A stretch of 64,000 nt of DNA, taken from the IMG/VR virus record IMGVR_UViG_3300030117_006323, positions 27,171 to 91,170 of that record; one strand, given 5' to 3'. Made by a program: the position numbers and the translations under genes. The notes beneath the pieces are model-generated. The model saw nothing but the letters and a program-made list of their open reading frames with translations. It ran no database searches and had not been told where the DNA came from. Shown piece by piece: positions 43,726-63,542 of this stretch. Source of the stretch: a virus. The first letter of the stretch is position 1; each line of letters opens with the position of its first letter.

Positions 43726-44799
43726 TCAAACCCCTTGCAGCATGCGCCATGCGAGGTCCATCGGTTCTGCTTTTATGTCGTACTCCTCGACCATGTTACC
43801 AAATCCTGCTGGCGTGAGTGGGCCTTGGTCACCACCTAACGTGCTGCCGGATGCAATACCTCCTGATTGTGGGTCTAAGGTATTCATGGGGTGTTCCACC
43901 TCGTCTGGTAAAGAATTTAGTTTTTGTTCATTTTGTGCCGCATCTGTGACAGCAGTAGCCGTTGGGTCTGTTCCGTGGCTAGCATCCACATTTGTTGGTG
44001 GATTTATCATTTGCTGATTCATCAACAGTTGCTGTACAATTGCCGCCTGCATGTCGCGATTTTGCGCTAGATGAGAGTCGTACCCACTGGCAGTCAACAT
44101 ATCTCCTATCTGTGATGTGTTTTGCTCTGCTTCTGGTGGTGCTGCTGCTGCCTCTTGTTGTGCTTTTTCATGCTCGGCCATTGATTGGTCATAACCACGC
44201 TGTGCATCTTGGATTCTATCAGCATAACCATGCGCAACTCTTGAGCCTAAATTAGTCAAGGCTCTACCTTTCCCATAACCTGCCAAAGTGGCATCCATGG
44301 CACCACCGAAAGACCCACTTTGCTGTCCTTCATTAAATCCTAAAGCGGCCAATGGCAGAGATGCTACCATGCTACCTACATTGGCTGCGTGCCCAACTCC
44401 TCTAGCGGCCAATCCAGCCAAAGAAGCAGGAGTAGCGTCTACTTTACTTTGCAAACCCTGAATGGCATGATTCCAGCCTCTACCTAATGTTCCTTTTGGA
44501 TTCCGAATATGAAGACTTTGGGGTTGAAACATAGCACCCATGCCTCGTGACCATGTGGAATCACCACCTTGTTGTACTTGGTTAGCAGCAAAGCGCCCAA
44601 GTTTAGAACCAAAAGAATCCGTGCGATTTTGTGGTTTTTGCCGATTTCCTCCCATAGCCACTTGATATTGGTCTCCAAAAAATATCTGACCACCGGGACC
44701 AACTACAGCGCCACTGCCGGGTGTTAAAGAAGATTGGTGTTCAGACCCAACAACTGGCTCTTTCAAAATGCGCCAAGCAGTATCTAATGGGTCACTCAT
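43726..44799 (-). CDS. Tagged protein with a Gly/Ala-rich hydrophobic centre, possible ejection/membrane protein
   Basis: N-terminal DPLDTAWRILK and C-terminal EPMDLAWRMLQ tag copies. Confidence 0.6.
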   Translation of the reverse strand: MSDPLDTAWRILKEPVVGSEHQSSLTPGSGAVVGPGGQIFFGDQYQVAMGGNRQKPQNRTDSFGSKLGRFAANQVQQGGDSTWSRGMGAMFQPQSLHIRNPKGTLGRGWNHAIQGLQSKVDATPASLAGLAARGVGHAANVGSMVASLPLAALGFNEGQQSGSFGGAMDATLAGYGKGRALTNLGSRVAHGYADRIQDAQRGYDQSMAEHEKAQQEAAAAPPEAEQNTSQIGDMLTASGYDSHLAQNRDMQAAIVQQLLMNQQMINPPTNVDASHGTDPTATAVTDAAQNEQKLNSLPDEVEHPMNTLDPQSGGIASGSTLGGDQGPLTPAGFGNMVEEYDIKAEPMDLAWRMLQGV

Positions 44800-46961
44800 G
44801 AAAACACCACCTTTACTGCGCCGACAACTGGCGGAGGCACATTAAATACTTCAGCCACACGGTGCCAATCACCTTTCGATACTGCTAAACTACGGATGTC
44901 ATGTTTGGTCAAACCAGTTTTACTCGCCATCAAGGCTACATCTGATTCAACATTTAGATTCAAGTTGGTTTTTCTTGGGACATACTTGAGCACATTGACA
45001 TCTGTTTTTGCATCTTGCAACTGCATTTCTTCCATCGCTTTTTCAATACGGTCAAGCATGTCATGTTGGTCTAAAGAAGTACGAACCCATTGGTCTAAAC
45101 GTGTTTGGGCAGGGTCAGTGAAAAGGCCCATCGCTCTTGGGTCTTGTCGAATTTGCTGCGGAACTCGTAATTCTTCTGCCATTTGTGTTTGTTCACGACC
45201 GGGAGGCAGAGCGCTAAGTTGTTCACGGGCTTCTTGAATAACAGGGTGTAAAGGGCGAGGAGTTGTTATAGGGCGCTCAACAGCAAGACGACTTGCAGCG
45301 GGAGCGGCTCGTGCAGCAGGTTGTTGAATAGGTGCAGGAGGAGGGGCGGGCGCAGGAGGAGGAAGAGGTTCTGGGTCACGTATAGCAGGACCGGGACCGC
45401 CGGGTGGAGTAGGCATTTCTTCTGTAGTCATTGGGGCCATAGTCAATTCTGTGTGGAACCTGTTTTTCCAGTGAGGAGTAACTTCAGTGTTTATGATTTG
45501 GTCCACAAGTTGTGAGCCAACATGGGCTGAAGTTGGTAGATTATCCCAATCAGGCACCCAATCTGGATTATGACCATATCCTACTGCCATCATACTTGCA
45601 ATAGATTCAAACACCGTTCTGTTGTTGGCAATTTTCATCCGGTCCTCGTCAGAAAGATTTGCGACAAAATCTGATTCAACATCGGCCATAGCAGACCGCG
45701 TTGGGTCTTTTTCAGAAGGACCATAGGCCCCTGCGGCTTCAGCGACTTTAGCCGCAAAAGAATGAGGACTTCTTCCTTTTTTTCTTGTTCCTGTGCGCGC
45801 ATGTCCTGCGTGTAAGTCAATACCTTCAACATCCATAATTGGATGCATAATTTTTCGTGTTTTTGTTGCGGTCGCAGGACTACCTGCTCCTGCAAACATA
45901 TACTGCATAACTGGTGCTTTGGCTAATTCATGGATAACAGCCGCCCGCAATTCAGGATTAGGCATTGCTTGTCTCAATGAGATTTGTCTGCCATCAGCAA
46001 GGGAAATAGGTGTGTCAGGAATTTGGTCAAGCATTCCTGCTTGTTCCATTTGCATCATGACTTGATTGATTTCAGCCTCTGCGGCTTCTTTGTTTTTTCT
46101 AGCAGAATACTGTGTCGCAGGGATATGGAACATATCATCAGGTAAATGTTTCACAGTTTCCCAAGTATGTATGTTGCCGTATGCTTGGTCAGCCATAAGA
46201 CCTTTAGGACCATGTCTTTCAAGCACATGACTCGGGACAATCCCATGGGCTTGTAATTCTCCGGCTTTTGTCCGGTAAGTGTGCGGTGAAAGAAGTTCAG
46301 GGCTAATATTTGGGTATTTGACAAACTCTAACTCACCCGCAGCCATGTCTCCTAATCCGGGTGCGATTGCATTCAATTCAGATTGAATTTGTTTATTCAT
46401 TGGTATTGCACCAGATTCAGGGAATAAACCTGCTTCGTGTCCGGGCTTGCTGGAATAATACGTAAATTTCAATCCATCGTTACCTCTAGTACCAATTGCG
46501 TTTTGGCTCCCTTGGTTAATTGGATGAGGGCCTACTACGGCTTTGCGCCATTCTGGAGAATCAAAATCAGCCAAACCATGATTTTTAGTGTGAACGTGGT
46601 CTAAATTAAATCTGTCAATTGCTCTCTGCAATATTTCTGACGCATCCATCGGTTCACCATTTTCGTTTTTGATATTGTTTTTATCCAAAAACGCTTGAAG
46701 ATGCGTAGCCGCACCATCAATAGGATGCATACCACCGTCTAGCAAAGCACCTGTATGTGGGTCCCAAGAGAACAAAGGATGGTCGGGCTTATCGGGATGA
46801 GGATTCAAAGCGTGTTCAGGAGGCCAATACATCTTTTTGTGGCCCTGCGGGCTCATGAAAATAACACCGTCACCTTTTCGCAGTAAAATAGGTTCCACAA
46901 TATTTTCAGTGAAAGATTTCATAATCCGGTCTTGCGGACTAAGAACTCGGATTTGTACCAT
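44796..46961 (-). CDS. Hypothetical 721-aa protein with a Pro-rich linker
   Basis: Long coupled ORF; IMKS, LRKG and IEKA sites; possible C-terminal HTH. Confidence 0.6.
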   Translation of the reverse strand: MVQIRVLSPQDRIMKSFTENIVEPILLRKGDGVIFMSPQGHKKMYWPPEHALNPHPDKPDHPLFSWDPHTGALLDGGMHPIDGAATHLQAFLDKNNIKNENGEPMDASEILQRAIDRFNLDHVHTKNHGLADFDSPEWRKAVVGPHPINQGSQNAIGTRGNDGLKFTYYSSKPGHEAGLFPESGAIPMNKQIQSELNAIAPGLGDMAAGELEFVKYPNISPELLSPHTYRTKAGELQAHGIVPSHVLERHGPKGLMADQAYGNIHTWETVKHLPDDMFHIPATQYSARKNKEAAEAEINQVMMQMEQAGMLDQIPDTPISLADGRQISLRQAMPNPELRAAVIHELAKAPVMQYMFAGAGSPATATKTRKIMHPIMDVEGIDLHAGHARTGTRKKGRSPHSFAAKVAEAAGAYGPSEKDPTRSAMADVESDFVANLSDEDRMKIANNRTVFESIASMMAVGYGHNPDWVPDWDNLPTSAHVGSQLVDQIINTEVTPHWKNRFHTELTMAPMTTEEMPTPPGGPGPAIRDPEPLPPPAPAPPPAPIQQPAARAAPAASRLAVERPITTPRPLHPVIQEAREQLSALPPGREQTQMAEELRVPQQIRQDPRAMGLFTDPAQTRLDQWVRTSLDQHDMLDRIEKAMEEMQLQDAKTDVNVLKYVPRKTNLNLNVESDVALMASKTGLTKHDIRSLAVSKGDWHRVAEVFNVPPPVVGAVKVVFS

Positions 46962-46962
46962 T

Positions 46963-49206
46963 TCAATGCGCTCCTACATGAGCAGAAGGCTCCATACCCC
47001 ATGTTCTAGCGTCATCATGGGGCGGTGTTTCAGTACCTCCTTCATTTTTTGTCGTTTTCCTCGGGCTGTTGGCTGGATAATCTGGCTTATCTTCTCCTGC
47101 CCCAGCCGTGTCTTTGGCCTTTTTCATTCGACCACGCTTGTCTAAAGCCTCTCGGAGTTCTCGTAGCAAGCGTTTGATGTCTTGAGCATGGGCAAAACCA
47201 TACGAGCCGGGGCCCATGATATTCTTCTGAATATCACTTCCTTCAGAAGAATCCTCTGACATCTGAATTGAAGAAGAGGGGAGCCCCACCTGCGCAGGCT
47301 GGGGGAGAGGCGGCGCAGATGGGACTGTTGGGGGTGTCATAGGACTGAAGCCTGTGGGTGGTTTCAGTCTTGGCATTCTAGGTCTAGCCAGTCGGCGTAG
47401 AGATGGAATATTTGCAGCAGCGGCTTGTCCGGGTAATGTTCCACCAAGACGCCCGCCACCAGTAGGACCGGGGTATTGAGTGCGTTCACCAAACAAAGCG
47501 TGAGGCGAATAAGGTAAAGGCACGTTACCCTGAAGTCGTCGTCGCAATTGTTGACCGTAGTATTGTCTGTATGATGCAGGGAATTGTCTCATTGGTTGCT
47601 TAGTTTGCACACCAAGGTGAGACATGTGCACTGCCAGAGGCGCACCCATCAGACCACCTTTGATACTGTGGACTCGATGACGAGGTGACAAAGTCCGGCT
47701 ACGAGCCTTGGCTCTTCGGGATGTACCAGTCCATGGACGGCGTCCACCGGGTGGCCCATGGAACTTTGGTTGGGCCCACTTTTTTGCGTGTTCTTTTCGG
47801 CGTTGAGTAGTTGTTCCGGCTGAACCAATTTCACCAGCGGCCATTGCTCCTTCGCCTTTATCCTTTTTCTTAGACTTCAACAATGACCAAGCAAGGTCCA
47901 TTGGTTCACTTAATTTCAAATTCCCTTCTTCGTCAAACATCTCTTCTTGGAATGCTTGCTGTTCATGGAGATTCGCATCAATAGGTGGCATCTCATATTC
48001 GCCTTTTGGATTCTTTAATCCGTGCTGTGTGTAGTAAGTATCAGAAATTTCTTCTACTCGGTTATCCCAAGTCCCTTGTTCTTTTAGTGCTGCATAAATA
48101 GATTCGCTGGTATAAGGACCATGACCATTAACCCACGCCATTGATTTATCAGGCGTGAGCCAAGTGATGATTGGTTGTTCTGGATTATCATATTTTAACA
48201 ATTCAGACCAAGCGTAATCCATTGGCTCGCCTGTCTGAATATTGTCATCACCAGCATTATCCCATTCGTGAACAGGGACACCTTGTTGCCACAGGTCGTA
48301 ATGTTTTCTGTATGATGGCGGTGCCCACATACCGTCTTGGTGGTATGTATGAATACCTTGTTCTTCAAGTAAGTCTTCATATTTATCTCGTTGTTCATCG
48401 GTTATGTAATTCCAAAAATCAGGGTTATCCCAATCAGTAATTGCCATAGTATCCTCATACCAATGATTATGCAACATTTCAGGTGACATTTCATTCATTA
48501 TGGAAGCATAGTATTCATCATTCTTTTCATTTGCATATTGGATTTGTTCTACTGCTTGTTCCAGCGTTGGGTTGAATAATTCAGGGTGAGATTCCGGTGT
48601 TATTGGTACGAAATCATCATCTTCTTCATCATCCCAATATGGTGATTCACCCGGCCCACCGGGTTGATACATGAACCAATCAGAACTTCCCGGCGTCACA
48701 TCGGCAGGTGCTTTCAGTAATTCCGACCAAGCCTCTTCTAAGAATTGAGAACGATACACACCCTGCGGTCCAAGTAGAGGGGGAATACCACCCATTGCAG
48801 AACCAGTTCCAGTCTTAGCGCCAACCGCTTGGTCAAGTTCAGCACCACGAGAACCACTTGCTCCTGTCAATTGTGACAGTTCTGCCTGCATTTCATCTTT
48901 AGGAGGAGCCTCGCCATCTCCTTCTTGCGTTACTTCTTGACCGGGGGCTAATTCTTCGCCGGGTAAAACAGATTGCATGACATCCTTGTTCTTAATTTTG
49001 ATATGATGGAGGCGTTGGCGATTTTTTGTTTCCTCTTTCTCGCGCTTATCTTTTTCATTCTTAGCAGCGGCAATTTCGGGGTCACCGTAGCCATGAGCAT
49101 AACCAGTCTCATCATCCTCATAACCGAACAGGCGTGTGGATTCTGAACGAGGGTTGTACATACGGGTATCAGACCCGCGACCCATACCACCTGTCCCGCT
49201 AGGCAT
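46963..49206 (-). CDS. Tagged modular polyprotein-like protein (3 tags)
   Basis: EEAWSELLK, GEPMDYAWSELLK and SEPMDLAWSLLK separate acidic modules and a basic R/P-rich module. Confidence 0.65.
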   Translation of the reverse strand: MPSGTGGMGRGSDTRMYNPRSESTRLFGYEDDETGYAHGYGDPEIAAAKNEKDKREKEETKNRQRLHHIKIKNKDVMQSVLPGEELAPGQEVTQEGDGEAPPKDEMQAELSQLTGASGSRGAELDQAVGAKTGTGSAMGGIPPLLGPQGVYRSQFLEEAWSELLKAPADVTPGSSDWFMYQPGGPGESPYWDDEEDDDFVPITPESHPELFNPTLEQAVEQIQYANEKNDEYYASIMNEMSPEMLHNHWYEDTMAITDWDNPDFWNYITDEQRDKYEDLLEEQGIHTYHQDGMWAPPSYRKHYDLWQQGVPVHEWDNAGDDNIQTGEPMDYAWSELLKYDNPEQPIITWLTPDKSMAWVNGHGPYTSESIYAALKEQGTWDNRVEEISDTYYTQHGLKNPKGEYEMPPIDANLHEQQAFQEEMFDEEGNLKLSEPMDLAWSLLKSKKKDKGEGAMAAGEIGSAGTTTQRRKEHAKKWAQPKFHGPPGGRRPWTGTSRRAKARSRTLSPRHRVHSIKGGLMGAPLAVHMSHLGVQTKQPMRQFPASYRQYYGQQLRRRLQGNVPLPYSPHALFGERTQYPGPTGGGRLGGTLPGQAAAANIPSLRRLARPRMPRLKPPTGFSPMTPPTVPSAPPLPQPAQVGLPSSSIQMSEDSSEGSDIQKNIMGPGSYGFAHAQDIKRLLRELREALDKRGRMKKAKDTAGAGEDKPDYPANSPRKTTKNEGGTETPPHDDARTWGMEPSAHVGAH

Positions 49207-49623
49207 TTACTCCTCTCCTGTCAAATACTCAAAAGTCGCCCGAGCACGGCTAGCCAAGTTATGGTAAAAATTCTTGATACGAGGGGGATGCGAAAAACAA
49301 CGAGCCATATCTGAGCATAGATGCTCAAAATCAATCAAGGCGTGATACGTTACATTCCTCAATGCAAAAACATCAGGGCCATCTTCTTCCAACAACTCTA
49401 CAAAGCAGTCATACAAATTTTCGACTGACATGCTGTAACTTTCAATTTCTGGATTTCTGATTTGTTGCTGCAAATAATGTATCCAACGAGATACACATTC
49501 GTGCACGCCATCAAAAAAAGGCTCAATTTCATCATCTTCTAATGGGCCTTCTCCGTGCAAAAGATGCGTGTAAGGAGTACCGTAAGCAAGCAAAATATTC
49601 ATGGGGATGCGTAAACCTCTCAA
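49207..49623 (-). CDS. Hypothetical helical protein
   Basis: ORF coupled to neighbours. Confidence 0.5.
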   Translation of the reverse strand: MRGLRIPMNILLAYGTPYTHLLHGEGPLEDDEIEPFFDGVHECVSRWIHYLQQQIRNPEIESYSMSVENLYDCFVELLEEDGPDVFALRNVTYHALIDFEHLCSDMARCFSHPPRIKNFYHNLASRARATFEYLTGEE

Positions 49624-50309
49624 TCTAACACCTCCACATCTTCATTTTCCAAAAGCCTCTTTTTGACACGCCGCCATACTTCTGGGCTTTCTTGCGCCAA
49701 TTCAACTTTCATGATATTGATTGTTTGATTGACAGTCTGTGCTTCGGGTTCAGTCCACTTCTCTTCAATTTTGAGTAAATCCTTGATACTCTCTCTGACT
49801 TCTTTGTGAAGTGTCACAGCATCGCGAACAAACCCTTCTTCGTGGACACTGCCTTCCGCCATTAATTGCTGAAGTTTATGATTTAGGCCTTCTACATTTT
49901 GTCTCAATGTTTTGACTTCTGTCCCAGCAGACAGTGCGACCTCTAACGCAGCACTCTGGCGAACAAGAGGTTGGAAATGTTCTCTCATGTGGTGGTAAAC
50001 TGTAGATTCTGGAATTTCTGTTTCGTTGGCAATTTCTTCGCTAGAAGTGGTGCCTTCGTAGTATGCCTTCTCAATTTCTGCTCTTTGCGGATGAGAACAA
50101 ACAGGGCAAGATGGATTGGCTCCGTGGATGTAATCGCCCATGTGATTTCGGAAGTGACGGTCTGCTGTATTTGCTCTCCAACCCATTTCTTTGTCAAGGT
50201 CTTTACAAGTTCTCACACCTTGCAAAAGAGATTCTTCTAATTCATCTCTATCGCTGTGTTGACAAAACGCGCAGGAGCGCTTTGTAACTCGCTCTCGCTC
50301 AGCCATCAC
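49620..50309 (-). CDS. Tandem Zn-finger/HTH protein with coiled coil, terminase small subunit candidate
   Basis: Two repeats CxxCxH..R.E.E...G.....H...H, then a coiled coil; first gene of the unit leading to terL. Confidence 0.55.
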   Translation of the reverse strand: MMAERERVTKRSCAFCQHSDRDELEESLLQGVRTCKDLDKEMGWRANTADRHFRNHMGDYIHGANPSCPVCSHPQRAEIEKAYYEGTTSSEEIANETEIPESTVYHHMREHFQPLVRQSAALEVALSAGTEVKTLRQNVEGLNHKLQQLMAEGSVHEEGFVRDAVTLHKEVRESIKDLLKIEEKWTEPEAQTVNQTINIMKVELAQESPEVWRRVKKRLLENEDVEVLD

Positions 50310-50331
50310 TCTCTATGAGAGTGGTACAGTG

Positions 50332-50344
50332 GATAAGCCTTTAG
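50332..50344. promoter_or_regulatory. Divergent promoter region
   Basis: Minus-strand CTTATC 22-25 nt before the GTG/ATG at 50309/50306; plus-strand TTTAG about 25 nt before the ATG at 50370. Confidence 0.45.
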
Positions 50345-50366
50345 GCGAAAGGCGGCCTAGGAGGGG

Positions 50367-50648
50367 GTGATGAGGAGATTATCGAGAGCGCCGAAAATTC
50401 TGGGAGTGCCCATCCGGGCAAAAACTGCAATCGACCTTGCAAAGGCAGCAAAAGACATCACTGCAAGGCGTTTTGTCCCTGAAGAAATCAAGCAACAAAG
50501 AATAGAAATTTGTCGTGGTTGTGACCGTTGGCACGAAAACTCACATCGGTGCCTTGAATGCGGCTGCCAAATGAGAGTCAAAACAGGACTTCAAAGTAGC
50601 AGTTGCCCATTAGGAAAATGGGATTCTTATCGGGCAATCCGAGAATAG
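50367..50648 (+). CDS. Small Cys-rich protein (DUF6171-like)
   Basis: RIEICRGC..RCLECGC..K.....CPLGKW pattern common in marine viruses; GGAGG/GGTG RBS. Confidence 0.7.
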   Translation: MMRRLSRAPKILGVPIRAKTAIDLAKAAKDITARRFVPEEIKQQRIEICRGCDRWHENSHRCLECGCQMRVKTGLQSSSCPLGKWDSYRAIRE

Positions 50649-50881
50649 ACATTTGTGAGCATAAGCATGCTCAAAAACAAACCACCCATTACGAATGTCA
50701 AATCATTTTGACTCAATTTACCGTGGGCAAACGCTAAGACAAAAGCAAACAAAATAATGAGACTCAAAAGTTGCACCATAATCATGTCAATGATTACTTT
50801 TTTCTGTGGATTCAAGACATCCATTGCTGAGCGTTCTAAGCCAAACGGCATAATTGTTCCTTTGTTTTTCATCCTAATCAC
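50627..50881 (-). CDS. Small two-TM membrane protein (holin-like size and topology)
   Basis: Two hydrophobic helices: IMVQLLSLIILFAFVLAFA and FVMGGLFLSMLML. Confidence 0.55.
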   Translation of the reverse strand: MIRMKNKGTIMPFGLERSAMDVLNPQKKVIIDMIMVQLLSLIILFAFVLAFAHGKLSQNDLTFVMGGLFLSMLMLTNVYSRIAR

Positions 50882-51495: not shown

Positions 51496-51499
51496 GCTA

Positions 51500-52459: not shown

Positions 52460-52644
52460 TAATCTCCCTCCACAGGGTAAGCGACTAGTTTGAAAGAGTC
52501 ACCATTTGGCTTCAATTCCCAGCGAATTTTCTGACCTGCGACCAAGCCTAGTTGCCTGACTGCCCAACGAGGGATTGTGGTTCTCAATGAATCACTTTTG
52601 GCCGAAGTTTTTACAACCAAAGTAGTGTCAATGGGGTAAGCCAT
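52459..52644 (-). CDS. AbrB/MazE/SpoVT-like DNA-binding protein
   Basis: SDSLRTTIPRWAVRQLGLVAGQKIRW swapped-hairpin signature; start MAYP 23 nt after a TATA-like box. Confidence 0.8.
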   Translation of the reverse strand: MAYPIDTTLVVKTSAKSDSLRTTIPRWAVRQLGLVAGQKIRWELKPNGDSFKLVAYPVEGD

Positions 52645-52667
52645 GAACCTCCCACAAGGAAGGACAG

Positions 52668-52679: not shown

Positions 52680-52698
52680 TCATGGAGGCAATTCAGTC

Positions 52699-53193
52699 TT
52701 ACATCTGCGGGAGTTGAGGTATGCCCATTCCTTGAAGTGATTCAAGAGTGACAGGTGGAGCGCCTCTTACACTTGGGTCCATCGCCGCCGGGCCCCAATG
52801 GGGTTGTGTTGCCCCCGGTTCTCCAAAATAACTTTGTTCTGCACCGTGAAAAACCGGGCCGGTGTGTGTTTCTGCTTGATTATACTTTGGGTTTTCAGGT
52901 TTCAGCCTTCCAGTTAAATCATAATCTTGCGGCATACGTTGGACAGGATTTTCTGTAGGGTGTTGTGCATAAGTCCCTTGTTCGTATTGCATAATTCTAG
53001 GCTGTTTAATTCCTTGCCTTTCCATCATTCCTGTAATGGCAGGATGTAATGCTCCTTCAGGCATAAATCGGCTTGACCTTTCCACCCAATTCGGTCCCCG
53101 AGTCTCGACTAGTCTTGGCCTAACCAATTGCTGCTGTGGGTCTGCTTTTAGTAGTGCCCAAGCGTATTCAAAAGCGCTATTCATATTACTCAC
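52699..53193 (-). CDS. Tagged small protein
   Basis: N-terminal SAFEYAWALLK. Confidence 0.6.
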   Translation of the reverse strand: MSNMNSAFEYAWALLKADPQQQLVRPRLVETRGPNWVERSSRFMPEGALHPAITGMMERQGIKQPRIMQYEQGTYAQHPTENPVQRMPQDYDLTGRLKPENPKYNQAETHTGPVFHGAEQSYFGEPGATQPHWGPAAMDPSVRGAPPVTLESLQGMGIPQLPQM

Positions 53194-53512
53194 TGTCCAT
53201 CATCTCTGGTCGCTTAACACCAATTTTACCTGCGGGCACTCCTTGTGCCATAATATCTGTAGGAGCAGCCTCGGCTTCTGGGCCAGCGGGAGGCATCGGA
53301 GGCATAGCCTCCATACCACGACTTCCAGACATAGCAGCCGTCAATTCTTGCAAAAGACCTTCTGCTTGCTCCCGAAGTGCGGGGTCAGGGCTCTCAATAT
53401 TGGCATTTACGAAAGAGCGCAAACTCTGTAATTCAGCCGGAGTGTACTCTTTTCCAGCAGGAGAAACAGGTCGTGCTTTGAGCAAAGACCACGCCAAATC
53501 GAATGGGCCCAT
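53186..53512 (-). CDS. Tagged small protein
   Basis: N-terminal GPFDLAWSLLK. Confidence 0.6.
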   Translation of the reverse strand: MGPFDLAWSLLKARPVSPAGKEYTPAELQSLRSFVNANIESPDPALREQAEGLLQELTAAMSGSRGMEAMPPMPPAGPEAEAAPTDIMAQGVPAGKIGVKRPEMMDSE

Positions 53513-55027: not shown

Positions 55028-55051
55028 ATTTGAGGCCACACGAGGAGGCAA

Positions 55052-55063
55052 GATAAAGGTTGC
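55052..55063 (-). promoter_or_regulatory. BRE/TATA promoter GCAACCTTTATC
   Basis: Identical to 52668-52679; 24 nt before ATG 55027. Confidence 0.65.
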
Positions 55064-55068
55064 CTATC

Positions 55069-57909
55069 TCACTGAAGGATGTTTAAAGCCTCGTCTAAGG
55101 GCATTTCTGTCGGCGGTAGAACGCCTACTTGGCTACCGGCCATCCATTGCCAATCAGAACCATGGTCTTTCTCTGCTCTTTCCCTACCTTGCTTTTCGGC
55201 TGTTCTTGCTTGTGAGGCTGTGGGCTGAAATGCACTATGCATTACAGCCACTGGGGCACCATAAGCCCATGCAGCCGCTGTGCTTTTTTCTGGATTTGCT
55301 GTCGCATGCCCTAACCTTTCTTCTGCTGTTTGGCGAATTCGTTCATTGAAAGCATCGTTCAAAAGTTCAATTCTTTGTGCCTCTTGTTCTTGGTGTTCTT
55401 CTTGTTCTTTTTCCCGGCCACTTTGACGCATTGCCATTAATTTTTCTGATAAAGATGGGCCCATACCCAAATCCATCATTTGGTGGTCTGTTTGGGTTAA
55501 GTATGGAATAGCGAGACCAGATGCTCTGTCAAAATGATATTCATCTAAATTAGCCGCTTTATCTCGTTCAGCGAACCATTGTGGTGTAAATCTTTGTCGA
55601 GCGGCCAGTTCATACGCTATACTATTTTCACCACCATATTTTTCTGGGTCAATAAGAGGCTTTTGGGGATATTTACGTCTGAAGCGTTGTCTCAATTGGT
55701 CCAATATCGTGCCAGCAGGAAGAATAATACTGCCACCAAGACCCAATTGTTCAAGCAAACTCACAGGGTCTATTTTCAATAATTCCCAAGCATGGTCAAT
55801 TGGTGTTTCAGATTTACCTACTTGAGTAACTTCATCCCCGGGATACAAAGGTGGTCTGCCTTGTGCCATTCTTTGTTGTTCTTGATGAGCAAGTAAATCC
55901 CAGCCTGTTAAATTAGCAATACGCTCTTCTTCTTTCAATCTTGCTTGCATCGCCGCTTGCTGTTGGTCGTTGTGCACATCCCACGGCTCCATGGCCAATT
56001 CAGGGAATCTTTGTCTTTCTTCTTCCCACAATTTCATCTGCCTGTCTCTGAAAAATTGTGTCGGGTCCTCTTGCATCAAATCCAAAAATCCTTGATTGCT
56101 AATTTCTCGGGCTTGCTGTTCTCTGCCTGCTCCTTGCTCTAATCTTCGCAATAATGAAAATACTTTGGCTCTTGTTTCTGGGTCCAAATCTTCTCGGTGA
56201 CCACCTTCTTCACCGGGAACTCTCAAAATGCGTCTTTGTTCAGCAGGGTCCTCATAGAGTTCTTCAGGCCCACCCATCGCTAAAGTGTGGCCTAACATAT
56301 CCATCAAAGGTTGTGCATAATGACGAATATAGCGATTTCTGATTTCATCAGGTTTTTCCATTGCATTGGCCATATTTCTAAATCTTCTCGCAGCAGCAGT
56401 GTGACCAGAGTCTTGTAATAATTCTGCTTCTGCTCTCAAATCTTCTACACTCACTGACTCTTGATGTGTGTAAGGACGATGTGGCTCTTCGTCTTCTTCA
56501 TCTTCTTTAAGCAAACGGAAAGCAAGGTCCATTGGTTCACCTGTTTGCAGCCATCCTTCCCCAGATGTTAATGGTATGGGGTTTTCTCCCATCCGACTGT
56601 CAGCCATTGCGTCAGTCCAATTAGTCACATAGTTTATTGCAGGTTGAGGGGCTGTCAGATATTGCCTTGGTATATCCCCGTAATGCGCAAATGTATGTGC
56701 ATTCATGACTGGGTCCCATAGCGGTTCAACTGGGTTACCTTGTTCAGCCATATCTCGGAAGAATTGTTCTCTGATGCCAACCATTAGTGGTTTTCTTTGT
56801 GTCCCTTGGTTTGGATTTTCAAAACCTGCTTCTTCTTGCTTTTTACGTTGGGCCATCGCGGCTTCTCGGGCCCCATAATTTGCATAACGCTCGGCTGTCG
56901 AGAGGTCCCCTGTCCCAAACACAGCAGGTGGAATATCTTCATTAACGGTCTCCACAATATCTCCGGGCCTAACCTTTTGCCGTCCTGTTGCGATTTGAAA
57001 TTCACCGGGTGTCAGTCCTTCTGCTTCAATTTGTGGAGCACGAGTATGCCTTGTTCCGTGATAAGCAACGACATCACCTTGTGAAGATGGCCAAAATGGC
57101 ATAAACTCGCCAAGTTCTTGCTGATTCCTCAGCGGCCCTGTTGTATGAGTGCCTGTATAATCCAAGTCTACTTTGAGCAACCGCATGGCGATGTCCATAG
57201 GTTCGCTTGCACGAAAATCAGAAGATGACATTTCTTCATCGAGATTCTGTGGCTCTAGATTACCCGGATTCATATCCGACATGAGTTCATACAGTCGATT
57301 CATGATTTCCTCTTCTGACATTTGTTTGATACGCGCCTCAAGAGTATCTACATCTGGATGTGGACCTACATCTGCTTTAGGATTAGGGACACTGGTTGGT
57401 GCACCGGGGGCCCCTTCAAAGAGAGACCAATCTGGATTCTGTGTATCCTCGTGATAAGCCTCTCTTAATGCTGGGGCCTCATTTTCTTGCAACTTTTGCC
57501 TTCGCTCTAATTCGTGTTGCAGCATAATTACTTCCGCTGTTTCGGGTTGAATGCCAGAAGGAGTCCTTTCGTATAAATCAGCATCAGGGCTGAAAGGATG
57601 GTCATGTCCAAAAGGATGCATGGCATATTCTGGTGATGGCCCAGTAGAGACTCCTTCTGTGACTCTTCTGTTTCTTTCTATGATGAAGGGATTAGCGTCT
57701 TGGGGGAATAGGTTAGCGAACAGATTGGCGTGCTGAATAAGTTCTGCTTCCGTCATGTGCGGAATTTCATCAATCGCCGGAAGTCCAAGGTTTGTAAAAT
57801 GGTCTTGAAGTTCTTGAGGGTCGCTAAAATCAACAGGAGGTGGTACATCTATAGTCGGTGGGCCTTGATATTCATCATCATCTTGTTTGATGATTCTGAC
57901 GATGCCCAT
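55069..57909 (-). CDS. Tagged polyprotein-like protein (946 aa) with an ADP-ribosyltransferase-like module
   Basis: Three internal tags plus a degenerate C-terminal one; module 2 has VVAYHGT..I..EGL..AVFGT.D...A.RYA..DIPRQYL. Confidence 0.65.
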   Translation of the reverse strand: MGIVRIIKQDDDEYQGPPTIDVPPPVDFSDPQELQDHFTNLGLPAIDEIPHMTEAELIQHANLFANLFPQDANPFIIERNRRVTEGVSTGPSPEYAMHPFGHDHPFSPDADLYERTPSGIQPETAEVIMLQHELERRQKLQENEAPALREAYHEDTQNPDWSLFEGAPGAPTSVPNPKADVGPHPDVDTLEARIKQMSEEEIMNRLYELMSDMNPGNLEPQNLDEEMSSSDFRASEPMDIAMRLLKVDLDYTGTHTTGPLRNQQELGEFMPFWPSSQGDVVAYHGTRHTRAPQIEAEGLTPGEFQIATGRQKVRPGDIVETVNEDIPPAVFGTGDLSTAERYANYGAREAAMAQRKKQEEAGFENPNQGTQRKPLMVGIREQFFRDMAEQGNPVEPLWDPVMNAHTFAHYGDIPRQYLTAPQPAINYVTNWTDAMADSRMGENPIPLTSGEGWLQTGEPMDLAFRLLKEDEEDEEPHRPYTHQESVSVEDLRAEAELLQDSGHTAAARRFRNMANAMEKPDEIRNRYIRHYAQPLMDMLGHTLAMGGPEELYEDPAEQRRILRVPGEEGGHREDLDPETRAKVFSLLRRLEQGAGREQQAREISNQGFLDLMQEDPTQFFRDRQMKLWEEERQRFPELAMEPWDVHNDQQQAAMQARLKEEERIANLTGWDLLAHQEQQRMAQGRPPLYPGDEVTQVGKSETPIDHAWELLKIDPVSLLEQLGLGGSIILPAGTILDQLRQRFRRKYPQKPLIDPEKYGGENSIAYELAARQRFTPQWFAERDKAANLDEYHFDRASGLAIPYLTQTDHQMMDLGMGPSLSEKLMAMRQSGREKEQEEHQEQEAQRIELLNDAFNERIRQTAEERLGHATANPEKSTAAAWAYGAPVAVMHSAFQPTASQARTAEKQGRERAEKDHGSDWQWMAGSQVGVLPPTEMPLDEALNILQ

Positions 57910-57996
57910 GGCTATGCCTCATCCGTTGGGACAAAGAGGTAACAAATAGGTTTTCGGTCGTAAACCTGAATACCTTGCTACTTATGCCAGAGGGTA

Positions 57997-58575
57997 ATGA
58001 GCGTCCAGCATGGAAGCATTCTTGTTGTTCCTTCAAAGGAACATATCAGGAAAAACCCTGCATTCAAGAAAGCGCACCCTGCATTACTCGCTGTTTTACC
58101 TATGCTAATATCAGCAGCGGGTAAAGTAGTGGGCGGAGCCATCGGTTCGCCTATGAAAATGGGCAAAAAAATCATGGGAATGAATCAACAATCTGCAAGT
58201 GGAACACAGAACGTATCACAAATGGCAAATGCAGCGGCTGATGCAGATGACCAAATAGTACAACAAACACGACAAGCAGCAACACAACACGCACAAGTCC
58301 AAACAGGTGAATCAATGGATTTGGCTTGGCGTTTATTGAAACGCGCTACTTCTCCTGAAGCATTGCGACACAAAAGAGAATACGATACACAGTACGAATC
58401 TACACCTGAACGTGTAAATTATCGTGAAGAACTCAATGCTGAACGAAGAAAAAGAGGTATCATGGGTCAAGGGGGACCTGATATGAGTCACACTAAGCGA
58501 GGAGTTCTTGTCGCAGAAAGCCCACACGCAAATCGTGCTCGTCATTTCAAAGAGCGTGGGACTCTAAAACCGTAA
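57997..58575 (+). CDS. Tagged protein with a C-terminal basic, degenerate HNH-like module
   Basis: GESMDLAWRLLK then ELNAERRKRG..DMSHTK.G.LV.E....NRARH. Confidence 0.65.
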   Translation: MSVQHGSILVVPSKEHIRKNPAFKKAHPALLAVLPMLISAAGKVVGGAIGSPMKMGKKIMGMNQQSASGTQNVSQMANAAADADDQIVQQTRQAATQHAQVQTGESMDLAWRLLKRATSPEALRHKREYDTQYESTPERVNYREELNAERRKRGIMGQGGPDMSHTKRGVLVAESPHANRARHFKERGTLKP

Positions 58576-58688
58576 AGAAAAGTTCAAGGAGTGAACGTGC
58601 TTCGGCTAATCCGGCTCCCATCGGGTTTTCCGTATTTCTCACCTTCGGTAATCACGGCTTCGGCATCCATCCTCACCCGGTGGGGCCA

Positions 58689-58811
58689 CTACTTTTTCTG
58701 GTGGATGACAAATGCCTTTGATTCTGTGAATAAAGAACGATATTTTCCTAAAAATACTCCTAGAAAAAAACCAAACGCCCAAAGGGAGAAAATAAATGTC
58801 CAATTATCCAT
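58689..58811 (-). CDS. 40-aa single-TM microprotein (not in ORF track)
   Basis: Manual translation MDNWTFIFSLWAFGFFLGVFLGKYRSLFTESKAFVIHQKK; starts 1 nt after the preceding stop. Confidence 0.5.
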   Translation of the reverse strand: MDNWTFIFSLWAFGFFLGVFLGKYRSLFTESKAFVIHQKK

Positions 58812-58812
58812 T

Positions 58813-58908
58813 TTATTCGCCACCAAACATCAATTCAGCAAAAATAATTCCTGCTGTATAGCAAAGAAACCACAAAGCAAGAAAAATTGCTATGTGTTCT
58901 GCGTACAA
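58813..58908 (-). CDS. 31-aa single-TM microprotein (not in ORF track)
   Basis: TTG start directly after the preceding stop; MYAEHIAIFLALWFLCYTAGIIFAELMFGGE. Confidence 0.4.
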   Translation of the reverse strand: MYAEHIAIFLALWFLCYTAGIIFAELMFGGE

Positions 58909-59070
58909 TTAGTCATCCCGCCCATAGCGATGACCTTCGTACATATCGTTCACAAAGTCCTCAACCGAAAATTCCAATTCGATTTCGCCGAAACTTCGGA
59001 GAGCAATCCAAGTGTTCAAGCAAAAAATTCCTATCAAACATACAAGCGCAGCAAATACAACCCACATCAT
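58909..59070 (-). CDS. 53-aa N-terminal TM microprotein (not in ORF track)
   Basis: ATGA overlap with the lyase stop; MMWVVFAALVCLIGIFCLNTWIALRSFGEIELEFSVEDFVNDMYEGHRYGRDD. Confidence 0.5.
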   Translation of the reverse strand: MMWVVFAALVCLIGIFCLNTWIALRSFGEIELEFSVEDFVNDMYEGHRYGRDD

Positions 59071-59930
59071 ACCAATAATCCCCCAATAATACCATTAAGG
59101 AAATTAAGAGGGGCTTCTAAATCTGTCAATTTGATATTACAGTCAATATTATTGCTTTCAGCCCATTCAACCAAATCTTCAGTAGCCAAATTACCACCTG
59201 TGTTAGGCATAAACGGGCAGCCACCAAGCCCGCCAATACTAGAATCAAACTCACAAATACCAAAATCATACGCGATTTTTACATTTTCAAACAAACCTGT
59301 GCGCCCTTTGGGGCCTTCATGCAAATGAAGGGCCAAATTTTCAGGAATATAACCACAAATATTCAGAACGTGACGCAAAAGAGCAGGATAAACGCTACCA
59401 ACTGTATCACAAAGAACTACTGTGTTCCCAATAGATGCTGCCTCTTGGACACAAGTAATCAATTTATCATCAGATATAGGGCCTTCAAAGGGACAACCAA
59501 AGGCACAAGACACGTAAACACGGATATTTTCCTTTGGAATGCCCGAAAAAGCAGTTTGTAACATTTCAACGGCTTCAATTCGGCTTTTTCCGAGATTTCT
59601 TCGGTTAAATTCGTCTGAAGGTGAGAAAAAGGCGTTAAAATGGGTCGCACCTGCCGAAATAGCGCGTTTTAGACCCTTTTCATTAGGAATTAAGGCCCCA
59701 AACTCCATTTTTTTGTCAAAAAAAGGTAAAACTTCACGAAAAACGGCTTCAGAGTCTGCCATAGTGGGCACAAAACGTGGATTCACAAAAGAGCCGATTT
59801 CAATTGAATTTAAGCCACTTTTCGCCAATAAACCGATAAAATGGACTTTTTCGGAGGTCGAAAACCGCTTTTTGAGGTTTTGCAGACCGTCACGGGGGCC
59901 CACTTCGTAGATTTTAATGTCCGAAAGCAC
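59067..59930 (-). CDS. hmgL: Hydroxymethylglutaryl-CoA lyase (DRE-TIM family), auxiliary metabolic gene
   Basis: IYEVGPRDGLQN, IEIGSFVNPRFVPTMAD, YVSCAFGCPFEG, LCDTVG, LHLH, DSSIGGLGGCPF, GNLATED. Confidence 0.92.
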   Translation of the reverse strand: MLSDIKIYEVGPRDGLQNLKKRFSTSEKVHFIGLLAKSGLNSIEIGSFVNPRFVPTMADSEAVFREVLPFFDKKMEFGALIPNEKGLKRAISAGATHFNAFFSPSDEFNRRNLGKSRIEAVEMLQTAFSGIPKENIRVYVSCAFGCPFEGPISDDKLITCVQEAASIGNTVVLCDTVGSVYPALLRHVLNICGYIPENLALHLHEGPKGRTGLFENVKIAYDFGICEFDSSIGGLGGCPFMPNTGGNLATEDLVEWAESNNIDCNIKLTDLEAPLNFLNGIIGGLLV

Positions 59931-59954
59931 GATTTAAGGGAGATTGAAGCAGTC

Positions 59955-59960
59955 CATAAG
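59955..59960 (-). promoter_or_regulatory. TATA-like box CTTATG for hmgL
   Basis: 24 nt before the GTG start at 59930, same spacing as other units. Confidence 0.5.
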
Positions 59961-60007
59961 TGTAGAAGTTACATTAACTACATTAAGTGCACTCAGGTAA
60001 ACTAATG

Positions 60008-61456
60008 TCAGAGTCGCCATTCTGTCGCAGAAGGATTAGGGTCGGTGGACGTACCCATGACAGCGTTATAGGCCGGTTGTGCCGTCGGCGGCGTTGGTAG
60101 AGCGTTGGCCTCGGCGTAGGCTGCACGAATGGCATCGGCTTCGGCTTGAGCAGCGGCACGAGTGCGCTCCATTTGGAGAGCGACATCGTAAGCGTTACGA
60201 TAATCTGCTGGACGTTGTATTGGATTAGTTGTCATATCATGACCTGTTAAATCACCTACATTAAATGCACTTTGCCGTAATTTCATGTCAGCAAAGGCGC
60301 TCAAAGGTGCCGGGCGTGTTACACCCGGCATATTTTGTGGTATTTTAACAGCGACATCGCCCCATGGCATAGGTAAAAATCGACCGTACTTGCTTTCATA
60401 GCCTTTAGCCTGACCTGTTTTTGTGTCAAATTGGGTTTGCTTTGATTTTGGTTCCCAACCCGGTCTAACATTTGGTGACAACCGCCCGGGAGCCACATTA
60501 GGTGGCATCCAAGCAGCACCCTCGACCATAGGCCGCAAACTACCAAACTCTGGTTGTGAAAGGTCTCTTGTGTAAGCAAGCGGTGCGAATCTCATGGTTC
60601 TGTGAGAATCAGACATCTCGCCGATACCCTCATGGTCATCAGCCAATTCATCCATTCTGTTTGCCCACAAGTCGCGACCTCGCTTATCCTTTGGCTCAGA
60701 CATAGTTACACCGCGTGGTAAATTTTTACTGTATTTCATGTGAAATGGCCCAGACATTTCATTTCGGGCATGTGACATTAATGAAGTATTTTCTGGCAAT
60801 GCATTTATCACCGAATTCAATAATTTTTCATACATACCTTGTCTTTGGAATTGAGGGTAAGTTGTACCTTGTTCAATATACACTGTGCTCGGTTTTTTGT
60901 CGCTACCGAGCCTTCTTCGTCCGGGTTGGGGTGGCACCACATCAAAATCAGGGTCTGAACTTCCACTAGTCATGACAGAAGATACAGGGCCGTGTTCCGG
61001 GTGCACTAATCTATACAAGCCCTTATCATGCGTCAAATACAGATTATGTGGGTCAGTGATTTTAATTGGCAGTTTTGTGGTTCCACCTCTTTTTGCCCAT
61101 TTACGATGTCGCGGATTTTCTGGCGTTGTCTGCATTAAACCAGATGAAGTATCGAAATCACCTAACGACATTTGCCTCTTGAGCAATCGCCAAGCGAGGT
61201 TCATTGGTTCACTACGAGTAAAGCCTGTTTCTTCGTTGAAAGGTGTGTCCTTGAATGATGGCTTCCCCAGAAGGGTCTGTGTGGCTACTCCTGTCAAAGG
61301 TCGCTTTAATCTCAATGGATGCACCGCACCTGCTATGCCATGTTCAATGGCCTCTTTCCACTCCGGTGAAAGTTCATCTTCATCTATGTCTTGACCGGGA
61401 TGGAGCATTCTATCTTCATCCTTGAGCAATCGCATAGCGAGGTCCATTGGTTCCAT
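60008..61456 (-). CDS. Tagged protein with a GNAT acetyltransferase-like module
   Basis: Tags MEPMDLAMRLLK and SEPMNLAWRLLK; VYIEQGTTYPQFQRQGMYEKLL resembles GNAT motif A. Confidence 0.65.
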   Translation of the reverse strand: MEPMDLAMRLLKDEDRMLHPGQDIDEDELSPEWKEAIEHGIAGAVHPLRLKRPLTGVATQTLLGKPSFKDTPFNEETGFTRSEPMNLAWRLLKRQMSLGDFDTSSGLMQTTPENPRHRKWAKRGGTTKLPIKITDPHNLYLTHDKGLYRLVHPEHGPVSSVMTSGSSDPDFDVVPPQPGRRRLGSDKKPSTVYIEQGTTYPQFQRQGMYEKLLNSVINALPENTSLMSHARNEMSGPFHMKYSKNLPRGVTMSEPKDKRGRDLWANRMDELADDHEGIGEMSDSHRTMRFAPLAYTRDLSQPEFGSLRPMVEGAAWMPPNVAPGRLSPNVRPGWEPKSKQTQFDTKTGQAKGYESKYGRFLPMPWGDVAVKIPQNMPGVTRPAPLSAFADMKLRQSAFNVGDLTGHDMTTNPIQRPADYRNAYDVALQMERTRAAAQAEADAIRAAYAEANALPTPPTAQPAYNAVMGTSTDPNPSATEWRL

Positions 61457-61457
61457 A

Positions 61458-62882
61458 TTACCACTTGACCTTGTCGGCCCAATATGCAGCGCTCATTGGT
61501 CCTCGTTTGATATTTTTCTGATGTCGGGCTTTGAACGATGCACGCTTTTTTGCTCTCTTACCTTTTGGATTATCTTCTGTAACGGTGTCTGCACCTTGTT
61601 CACCGAACCGAATTGTTTTGACCTTACCGCCTGACCTTGCTACAACCACATGTGATTTCTTTGGATGATTTGGTGTGCGCTTTGGTTTGTTGTAACCACT
61701 TACTCCCGCTGCCTTTAGGCGCGGGTCAGGTTTCTTCTCCTTGAGTAACCCCCAAGCAAGGTCCATGGGTTCGCTTTTCATCTGGTATCCACAAGAAGGA
61801 CAAGTTGATAAATTTGTATCTACAGCAGAGCCGCAACCCATGCACATAGTTTGAGTCGGTTGAGTTGTTTGCTGTTTAGGTGCCCCAATAATCCCTAAAG
61901 CAGCAAGTTGGTCAATTTGGGCTTGCACTTCTGGGCTGACTTGAGCAGCCATAAGAGAACGCTGTCTTTCTTCTTCCTCTTGTTGTAAGCGCTGTCTTTC
62001 TTCTGCGTCTTTTGCTTCTTGCTCTAATCGTAGTTTTCTTTCAGGGCTTGTTTCGACAGTTGAAAAACTCCCTAAAGATTCAAGCAATTTCCGCGCAAGT
62101 TGTTCGTAACGAGGCATTCCGCGCTGTGGCCAATTTTTTTTGGGTACTTTAATTCCCAATGATGCCATCGTATCAGGTGTAATAGTGGCTATATCTGCTT
62201 CGTCAATTATTTGGTCTCGGTAAGCGCGTGTTGATATGTCGGGAATATCTGTGGCTTCTTCTGCTGCAAATTGATTACCCATGTCAAATAATCCGGGTAA
62301 CTCATGATGAATACCTCGATTCTCTAACGCTTGAGGCTTTAGGCTATTCTGTGGCATTACTTTGATAGTAGGCCGAGTCCCCTGACCTTTACCTGTCGTA
62401 CTATCCATTCCGCCAACTACACTTTTGACACCAATTTTACCAGTTTCATCTCTTACTAGAACTGGAGTGTATGTGTGCGCTGTTCTTGTTTGCCCACTGT
62501 CATCTTTGTATTCTTGAGGCTCATCTGTGTGTAAAGCCTCCATAATCATGGAAGGATATTCATTAGGGTTTTCTCCCATAGACAAAGCATCGGATAATTC
62601 AGGATGATTACGTAAAGTCAATTCAGCCATAGCCAAAGCCAATTCTTCAGGGGTATTGTTTTCAAACCCTTTAGGCATATCTTGTTTAGGCGCAAATCTT
62701 TCTTCCAGCCGTTTTTCATAATGCCCTCTGTCTGTGGCTTTTGGGTCAACGAATTCAGTGTGCCCCCATCTCATTTCGTCTAGAATATTTTTCAGAGCAT
62801 CATGATATTTCGGGTCACGAAATTGTGCCGGAAAATGATACGCTTTGAGAAGTAAGTCCCAACTTACTTGCAAAGGACTCAA
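61458..62882 (-). CDS. Tagged protein with Zn ribbon and a basic C-terminal module
   Basis: N-terminal SPLQVSWDLLLK; CMGC..CPSC; SEPMDLAWGLLK; then KTIRFGEQG..RASFKARH..SAAYWADKVKW. Confidence 0.65.
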   Translation of the reverse strand: MSPLQVSWDLLLKAYHFPAQFRDPKYHDALKNILDEMRWGHTEFVDPKATDRGHYEKRLEERFAPKQDMPKGFENNTPEELALAMAELTLRNHPELSDALSMGENPNEYPSMIMEALHTDEPQEYKDDSGQTRTAHTYTPVLVRDETGKIGVKSVVGGMDSTTGKGQGTRPTIKVMPQNSLKPQALENRGIHHELPGLFDMGNQFAAEEATDIPDISTRAYRDQIIDEADIATITPDTMASLGIKVPKKNWPQRGMPRYEQLARKLLESLGSFSTVETSPERKLRLEQEAKDAEERQRLQQEEEERQRSLMAAQVSPEVQAQIDQLAALGIIGAPKQQTTQPTQTMCMGCGSAVDTNLSTCPSCGYQMKSEPMDLAWGLLKEKKPDPRLKAAGVSGYNKPKRTPNHPKKSHVVVARSGGKVKTIRFGEQGADTVTEDNPKGKRAKKRASFKARHQKNIKRGPMSAAYWADKVKW

Positions 62883-63194
62883 TTACTCACCACCGGCTGG
62901 GGCCCGTGGTGCTACAACTGGTACTGGATTGTAAAGCGCATGTGTCAATGTGTTTGGTCCACCCGGTGCATCTTCAGCCCGTGGAGCAATAAATGGCTTC
63001 TTTACATCTGGTAATTTTGGCTTTTGGTTTTGGGGTGGGGGCATTTCAGTTGGCTCATCTGGAACTACTGGCCCTAGCCCTCTTTCAGCAGGTGACATTT
63101 GAGCGCCACTCTGAAGATATGAAAAAGCATCCAATTCAGGTCGGTAACGAGCAGAGTCTTTCAAAATCGTCCAAGCGATGTCAAAAGGCTGCAA
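62883..63194 (-). CDS. Tagged small Pro-rich protein
   Basis: N-terminal QPFDIAWTILK; GAGGTG RBS. Confidence 0.6.
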   Translation of the reverse strand: MQPFDIAWTILKDSARYRPELDAFSYLQSGAQMSPAERGLGPVVPDEPTEMPPPQNQKPKLPDVKKPFIAPRAEDAPGGPNTLTHALYNPVPVVAPRAPAGGE

Positions 63195-63203
63195 AATTAC
63201 ACC

Positions 63204-63542
63204 TCAAACTGGGGGGCGACCTTTCGCTGCTCTCCGAGCCATGAATTCATCTAGTTTCCTTTGATTCCTTACATCTTGAGCCATACGGTTCTCTTGAGTG
63301 TCCATGGCTTGCTCAGAGCGTGCTCTGTCTTTTTGCGAAGTACGTACATCCGGGCTTCCACGTTGCCTTTCACCTATGTCTTCGTAAGGCAGAGGAGGCT
63401 GAGGCTCATCTTCCACAGGCATGAAAACCGACGCATCAGGGTCCATTCCCAATTGCCGACCAGCCTCCATTTCGGCTATTTCTGCTGGGGTTGGTTGCCA
63501 ATTTTTCAATAGCGTCCAAGCAACGTCGATTGGAGCGCGCAT
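63204..63542 (-). CDS. Tagged small protein
   Basis: N-terminal APIDVAWTLLK; TTTATG box 23 nt upstream. Confidence 0.6.
   Translation of the reverse strand: MRAPIDVAWTLLKNWQPTPAEIAEMEAGRQLGMDPDASVFMPVEDEPQPPLPYEDIGERQRGSPDVRTSQKDRARSEQAMDTQENRMAQDVRNQRKLDEFMARRAAKGRPPV

Follow-up and report, generated by a model that had tools for sequence, protein, structure and literature searches.

A conserved helical tag on unrelated magrovirus proteins as a possible address and cut site for head cargo

Ten ORFs (open reading frames) of an oceanic tailed archaeal virus of the magrovirus kind carry the same short peptide tag, which ends in lysine and stands at the start or end of a protein or between its modules. 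We found it in a window of 64,000 nucleotides, the final 64 kb of a single 91,170-bp contig (IMG/VR record IMGVR_UViG_3300030117_006323, positions 27,171 to 91,170), and all coordinates below are those of the window. In the surface ocean, magroviruses rank among the most abundant viruses of archaea. The tagged genes form a cluster at 43.7 to 63.5 kb, directly upstream of the terminase large subunit gene terL and mostly on its strand. The tag may be a combined address and cut site for cargo of the virus head, comparable to the capsid-targeting sequence (CTS) of phage T4.

A position matrix was built from the window's own tag copies and scanned over all six frames. Seventeen copies scored 20 to 38 bits, in 10 ORFs; they lie at 43735, 44761, 47875, 48196, 48715, 53146, 53477, 55774, 56506, 57172, 58309, 61178, 61421, 61740, 62847, 63159, and 63504, all on the minus strand except the one at 58309. 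An 18th copy, C-terminal and weak, stands at 55072 (9.9 bits). Every other match in the rest of the window scored 9.9 bits or less, no additional copy above 13.1 bits was found in the whole 91,170-bp genome, and the top score in 20 shuffled genomes was 16.3 bits. A sequence-only reading of this stretch, made before our analysis, had listed about 18 copies in ten ORFs, seven of them beginning with the tag. Our scan recovered 18 of its 18 positions (17 strong and 1 weak) with offsets of 0 to 6 bases, gave the same count of tagged ORFs, and placed the tag at the start of ORFs 43726-44799, 52699-53193, 53186-53512, 60008-61456, 61458-62882, 62883-63194, and 63204-63542, two of which start with TTG. 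The sequences after the tags had been called unrelated and the tag absent from the tail genes, terL, hmgL, and the GTPase gene; the 20 intertag modules have no significant mutual similarity (best BLASTP E value of 0.001 over 28 amino acids [aa]), and in the matrix scan none of those genes carries a copy.

The tag stands at both ends of ORF 43726-44799, the gene just upstream of terL, as DPLDTAWRILK at aa 3 to 13 (44761-44793, 29.7 bits) and as EPMDLAWRMLQ at the C terminus (43735-43767, 34.1 bits), where only GV and the stop codon follow. Four other ORFs have it at the N terminus as SAFEYAWALLK (ORF 52699-53193; tag at 53146-53178, 26.0 bits), GPFDLAWSLLK (ORF 53186-53512; 53477-53509, 32.7 bits), QPFDIAWTILK (ORF 62883-63194; 63159-63191, 30.6 bits), and APIDVAWTLLK (ORF 63204-63542; 63504-63536, 30.6 bits). 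An N-terminal copy is combined with an internal one in the 482-aa protein of ORF 60008-61456 (61421-61453, 29.8 bits, and 61178-61210, 34.5 bits) and in the 474-aa protein of ORF 61458-62882 (62844-62879, 20.0 bits, and 61740-61772, aa 371 to 381, 36.7 bits). The 747-aa protein of ORF 46963-49206 reads as N-module, tag, cassette, tag, cassette, tag, and basic C-module, with its tags at 48712-48747, 48193-48228, and 47875-47907. The 946-aa protein of ORF 55069-57909 has four modules, with tags at 57172-57204, 56506-56538, and 55774-55806 (28.1, 29.8, and 30.0 bits) and the weak C-terminal copy at 55072-55104. The sole plus-strand tagged ORF (57997-58575, 192 aa) carries its tag at aa 105 to 115 (58309-58341, 34.2 bits); the hydrophobic stretch before it, at about aa 27 to 50, is possibly membrane spanning, which would be odd for capsid cargo. 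Two C-terminal copies of the window end in LQ, as the sequence-only reading had remarked, but those of relatives mostly end in LLK plus 1 to 8 residues, and the idea that LQ marks a copy in no need of cleavage is not general.

Two neighbors of the tagged genes have tag-like sequences of their own. ORF 38338-38718 on the minus strand, just after the portal gene, encodes a small head-module protein with a tag-like N-terminal helix, ESMDSDIHMLK followed by AENM (38629-38661, 8.2 bits), which is kept as KMESMDSxIxLLK in relatives L001, L013, and L070; it may be a tag that has diverged, or the ancestor of the tag. The 721-aa ORF 44796-46961 on the minus strand is conserved beside the 747-aa tagged gene in all relatives and has no Pfam or PHROG match. 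Its only trace of the tag is degenerate (GEPMDASEILQ near aa 102) and its C-terminal end is helix-turn-helix-like; it is a possible candidate for a partner or a small-terminase-like protein.

The tag is kept in related viruses. The terL of this genome is 70 to 86% identical to terL on 80 IMG/VR contigs, the longest of 110 kb, and 120 related loci (L001 to L120) contain 307 tag copies in 203 reading frames. About 38% of these are N-terminal on single-module ORFs, 56% are internal, and 6% are C-terminal. Their logo is φ-x-[TAK]-[GS]-E-P-M-[DE]-x-A-[WMF]-[RSQ]-L-L-K (φ, hydrophobic residue), with a 12-residue form in A-W-S-x-L-L-K, and the Gly/Ser, Pro, and Asp positions would fit the N-cap and first turn of a helix, of which the remainder would be the amphipathic face. 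Conservation stops abruptly at the Lys, the last residue in at least 259 of 267 unique tag contexts; Arg is never found there. A profile of 81 tag windows was searched against a library of 1.84 billion proteins at an E value cutoff of 0.001 and matched 488 representative proteins, 195 of them at 1e-10, with a maximum of seven tags in one chain. Lysine is the last residue of 400 of 402 tags in the best 150 of these 488 proteins. Pro never follows the Lys directly, in 0 of 253 contexts from the related loci and 0 of 397 from the library set. Met is over-represented at the same place in the related loci (20 of 253 contexts, often as LLK-MP) and may be a fossil of the start codons of genes fused behind a C-terminal tag.

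The tag marks borders between modules that also occur independently. In ORF 61458-62882, positions 3 to 96 of the 96-position profile phrog_7595 match aa 383 to 474 (E value of 9e-34), and in ORF 57997-58575, phrog_6437 matches aa 119 to 187 (E value of 1e-17); both matches begin 1 to 3 residues past the Lys of a tag. We clustered 404 modules of the relatives and found one module family following tags behind many different upstream partners, and the same module families also stand alone as ORFs with an N-terminal tag. The family of ORF 46963-49206 is a core one, found in nearly every relative. A tag closes its conserved N-module, and its conserved basic C-module begins right after a tag. Among 35 homologues, the stretch between these two modules has 0 to 3 unrelated cassettes with tags on either side, and the shortest homologues carry just one tag. 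Foreign modules are inserted in this family only between tag copies, a pattern that separation of the chain at these places would explain most easily. The same short site at every border between independently occurring modules is a feature shared with viral polyproteins that have recurrent cleavage sites, and the earlier claim that the tags lie between distinct modules is borne out by the PHROG boundaries, the shuffling of modules, and the cassettes.

Most tagged modules are unannotated, poor in hydrophobic residues, and acidic or strongly basic, and they look disordered. Two of them, the phrog_7595 module and the C-module of the 747-aa protein, are very basic, a property common among internal head proteins. 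Apart from phrog_6437 and phrog_7595, searches of the tagged ORFs and their modules against Pfam and PHROGs gave only subthreshold matches. A few of the 124 + 75 tagged proteins of relatives have Pfam domains, namely, DUF5872, DUF6321, zinc-binding, HD_4, SLOG/YAcAr, GNAT, and DprA-like domains, and no replication enzyme was found among them. Effectors delivered with the DNA would be one way to see the few modules with enzyme-like domains (HD_4, SLOG/YAcAr, and GNAT). The module at aa 247 to 457 of ORF 55069-57909 (56539-57171), which lies between two tags, has 3 homologues in 5.8 billion proteins and no Pfam match; weak protein-atlas leads with scores of 0.89 to 0.90 point to ADP-ribosyltransferases of the PARP/Arr type. 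Sequence searches of solved structures with this module and with the viral prohead protease gave no match. The AlphaFold2 model of the 747-aa protein is poor and mostly unstructured (mean predicted local distance difference test [pLDDT] score of 50); two of its three tags were drawn as isolated helices (aa 154 to 165 and 435 to 448), weakly, with a pLDDT of about 50.

A candidate enzyme for cutting at the tag is encoded in the head module. The protein of ORF 30537-31904 (minus strand) has an S78 prohead protease domain at aa 23 to 173 (Pfam PF04586; E value of 7.1e-11; 43 bits against a cutoff of 21; PHROG annotation of head maturation protease) fused to a helical, scaffold-like C-terminal half. 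Its catalytic residues H65 and S123 are invariant in 35 homologues, and it matches HK97 gp4 by BLASTP (E value of 2e-4); score and catalytic residues place it in Peptidase S78, the family of the HK97-type prohead protease. A matrix restricted to the five final residues of the tag was scanned over 28,921 positions of the viral proteome. The top match outside the tags was FRILK followed by ED at aa 166 to 170 of this protease (13.5 bits; next best, 9.7). It lies in NPEAQFRILK (aa 161 to 170; 31395-31424), at the end of the Pfam S78 match and before EDTT and a variable acidic linker, and it is invariant in 65 protease homologues. The BLASTP homology with HK97 gp4 stops exactly there, with FRILK170 aligned to IAAMK159. 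The variable N terminus of the protease keeps a φ-φ-K site as well, and its K18 is invariant. The AlphaFold2 model of the protease is poor (mean pLDDT of 48), with moderate confidence only in the helical C-terminal half, whose helices lie within aa 184 to 452, so FRILK cannot be placed in a fold.

The tag end also resembles a site in the HK97-like major capsid protein (MCP; 29392-30531, minus strand; Pfam SU10_MCP, E value of 4.3e-9; phrog_24667 "major head protein," E value of 1.9e-56). Within aa 27 to 38, YSGSELLK followed by ADAP, the SELLK at aa 30 to 34 (30430-30444) repeats exactly the last residues of the 12-residue tag form, AWSELLK, which is followed by A(P/D); (I/L)LK-AD is kept in 80 relatives. 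The HK97 protease cuts its MCP after Lys103, where TFNK is followed by SLGS. The scaffolding domain of that MCP comprises 103 residues (PMC10275583). The end of the tag, x-L-L-K, thereby matches both SELLK/AD of the capsid protein and FRILK/ED of the protease, a likeness that is suggestive but not decisive. The matrix built from the window's tag copies gave no match above 7 bits in the C-terminal tail of the scaffold half, and cofolding the protease-scaffold protein and the capsid protein with a 45-aa tag peptide gave a score of 0.00 that, run without controls, is informative neither way.

The position of the tagged genes adds to this. terL (42255-43721, minus strand; Pfam Terminase_6C and Terminase_6N) starts the head module and lies directly downstream of the tagged cluster, and relatives have small tagged ORFs between terL and the portal gene, so that tagged genes both flank and interleave the head genes.

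Taken together, these observations can be read as follows. The tag would be a self-contained amphipathic helix of about 11 to 15 residues, with a Gly/Ser N-cap and then E-P-M-D-x-A-W-x-L-L-K, that would dock the attached module or modules to a component of the assembling prohead, for which the protease's scaffold half, the capsid protein, and some other core protein are candidates. Next, the S78 prohead protease would cut after the invariant Lys, which would strip N-terminal tags and separate the modules of multitag proteins. Since the modules are to be separated anyway, new cassettes could be inserted between tags without harm, which would give a fast-changing set of cargo. This reading accounts for the invariant Lys, the border positions, the terminal copies, the likeness to the protease and capsid protein, and the gene neighborhood; of the explanations considered we favor this one, as distinctly possible, if somewhat short of probable. 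The sequence-only reading had likewise proposed capsid loading followed by release; the tag's conservation as a peptide, its border positions, its invariant Lys, its likeness to the end of the S78 domain and to the MCP, and its placement by head genes speak in part for that proposal, and the LQ detail was not upheld.

Several points weigh against an address and cut site. Docking, cleavage, presence in the virion, and delivery into the host are putative steps. As cargo genes, about 20 kb would take up a very large share of a 91-kb genome. A cut after the Lys would leave upstream modules with a C-terminal tag, and the model does not explain their fate. FRILK and the N-terminal φ-φ-K site belong to the conserved S78 fold, and their conservation may therefore be structural; in the close relatives compared, the MCP's N terminus is conserved throughout, so the site in it is not singled out. 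A 1,949-aa head-module protein (31948-37797, minus strand) has eight φ-φ-K sites, three of them partly conserved, with Arg replacing Lys, and these we set aside as uninformative. The absence of Pro after the tag Lys is explained as well by the geometry of a helix as by the constraints of a protease, and we do not take it as proof of cleavage.

The closest known system is the CTS on IPI to IPIII and Alt of T4. The internal proteins and Alt of T4 have an N-terminal CTS of 10 to 20 aa, which is removed by the prohead protease (PMC7411985). This sequence directs unrelated proteins into the prohead core (Mullaney and Black 1996, summarized in PMC7411985) and is removed at a site like the one in the capsid protein, and the cargo enters the host with the DNA (PMC7411985). 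The magrovirus tag shares with it one characteristic of targeting of the T4 type, a short peptide common to otherwise unrelated proteins of one virus. The T4 sequence, however, occurs only at N termini, shows weak conservation, and is cut after Glu by the S77 protease gp21, whereas the magrovirus tag is a sharply conserved, putatively helical peptide ending in Lys, is also found internally and C-terminally with up to seven copies in a chain, has an S78 protease as its candidate enzyme and an archaeal host, and has a putative function.

Other systems share single features with the tag. The propeptides of phiKZ-like phages are cut after Glu in an S/A/G-X-E consensus. In the giant phages SPN3US, phiKZ, and 201phi2-1, many head-internal proteins are processed at one consensus, and their propeptides are proposed to target proteins into the prohead (PMC10052503, PMC7411985); these propeptides, however, are 20 to 254 residues long, have no sequence tag in common, and do not divide polyproteins into cassettes. 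HK97 gp4 and the herpesvirus protease resemble the magrovirus enzyme in that an S78 or assemblin-type domain is followed by an assembly or targeting region, but their sites are found only in protease, scaffold, and capsid proteins, and no family of unrelated site-bearing cargo has been described for them. The tail of HK97 gp4 reportedly targets gp4 into proheads. Encapsulin cargo-loading peptides are also short conserved peptides on unrelated cargo, at either terminus, and bind the inside of an HK97-fold shell, as the tag putatively binds the capsid, but they are extended, Gly/Ser rich, uncleaved, and not used between modules. Polyvalent proteins of phages and conjugative elements string unrelated modules, among them SLOG/YAcAr-, HD-, and GNAT-type ones, into long chains and are presumed to accompany the DNA on delivery and to be cut into pieces (Iyer et al., cited in PMC7824862); they have embedded peptidase domains and no shared interdomain tag, whereas in magroviruses one conserved helix would mark every border and head the single-module proteins. 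We found no mention of such a motif in the magrovirus literature that we searched, and a full-text search on capsid targeting in archaeal viruses gave nothing relevant, in agreement with the sequence-only reading, which knew of no such system there.

Among the other explanations, the one that fares best is that the tag is a docking helix for a partner other than the capsid, such as the virus's own chaperonin (thermosome), another viral hub protein, a host factor, or a membrane, so that accessory proteins are brought together at a single site in the infected cell without any need for cleavage. A conserved amphipathic helix at N termini, at C termini, and internally is more in keeping with a binding motif than with a pure cut site, and proteins built like beads on a string, with up to seven tags, would gain avidity. 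Magroviruses do encode a thermosome (PMC5434244), and T4 propeptides are said to recruit chaperonins too (PMC10052503). Docking of this kind nevertheless leaves unexplained why the final Lys is invariant and never Arg, why the tag resembles the end of the protease domain and the site in the MCP, and why tagged genes are placed among head genes. For a membrane as the partner, such strict sequence conservation would be unusual. Nor does the tag copy a common host motif. A strict exact pattern had only two matches in 185,579 prokaryote genomes (596 Gb). One (L121, 3481-3513) lies on a contig of a Parvibaculum metagenome-assembled genome that encodes a homologue of the 747-aa protein with one tag (BLASTP E value of 1e-33), and by this content the contig is a misbinned magrovirus; the other (L122, 3043-3075) lies inside a bacterial DnaN clamp and is a chance match. 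We regard a docking helix for a noncapsid partner as unlikely, though it deserves to be taken seriously.

A pure processing site or spacer of polyproteins, cut after the Lys by the S78 protease or a host protease to release products that act in the cytoplasm, with no role in addressing, would suit the position of the tags exactly at module borders, the insertion of cassettes between copies, and the invariant terminal Lys. It is hard to reconcile with the tags at the N terminus of single-module ORFs and at C termini, where there is nothing to separate, and with at least 11 conserved residues, which exceed the usual needs of a cut site. Use of the S78 protease would moreover imply packaging anyway, since prohead proteases act inside proheads. 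A site for cutting alone is, in our judgment, improbable.

At the nucleotide level, identical synonymous codons at the tag are somewhat more frequent than expected (44.5% versus 33.9%), an excess that falls mostly on Ala GCT and to a lesser degree on Pro and one Leu position. Too small to make conservation of the DNA the main cause, it is accompanied by no RNA structure (z score of 0.18), and an RNA element at the tag was rejected. Judged from the codons, selection on the tag is mainly at the protein level. This modest excess and the shuffling of modules at tags would be in keeping with a DNA recombination joint, a short shared sequence that promotes shuffling and of which the peptide is a passenger, but we give that idea very little credence, as the codons for Asp, Lys, and the second-position Leu vary as codon usage predicts, the amino acids are conserved across relatives with only 70% terL identity and across proteins clustered at 50% identity, and 307 of 307 copies are in frame on the coding strand.

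The tail genes lie on the minus strand with the head module. The portal gene (39108-40913, minus strand) encodes a low-complexity C terminus (39108-39500) with a run of MPGMM repeats and a tail, rich in Pro, Gly, and Met, of about 130 residues. ORF 40892-42250 (minus strand), which separates terL from the portal gene, encodes a protein with a LAGLIDADG-like motif (GFLDADGY) and a match to phrog_5046 "HNH endonuclease" (E value of 1.6e-9); it is probably a homing endonuclease within the head module. Downstream of the tail genes, ORF 1761-18806 (minus strand) is one reading frame of 5,681 aa.

To our knowledge, no one can yet grow magroviruses. If the tag is an address and cut site, no earlier capsid-targeting and release signal would be on record for an archaeal virus, and none in any tailed virus would be so clearly defined by sequence. 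The virion-delivered proteins of these uncultured viruses could then be listed from metagenomes, where several hundred tag-bearing clusters are already visible, and the exchange of cassettes at tags would explain the fast change of about a fifth of these genomes. The tag would also be a simple, portable sequence to try as a means of bringing foreign proteins into HK97-fold capsids. Should the partner not be the capsid, one helix recurring on dozens of unrelated viral proteins would still indicate a central hub of the infection cycle. More tentatively still, the tag might be a general load-and-release code of magroviruses, by which any protein with the tag at either end, or any cassette between two tags, would be packed into the head, released by the S78 protease, and carried into the next host; in that case, the injected proteome of these viruses would be readable from sequence and would turn over by cassette exchange.

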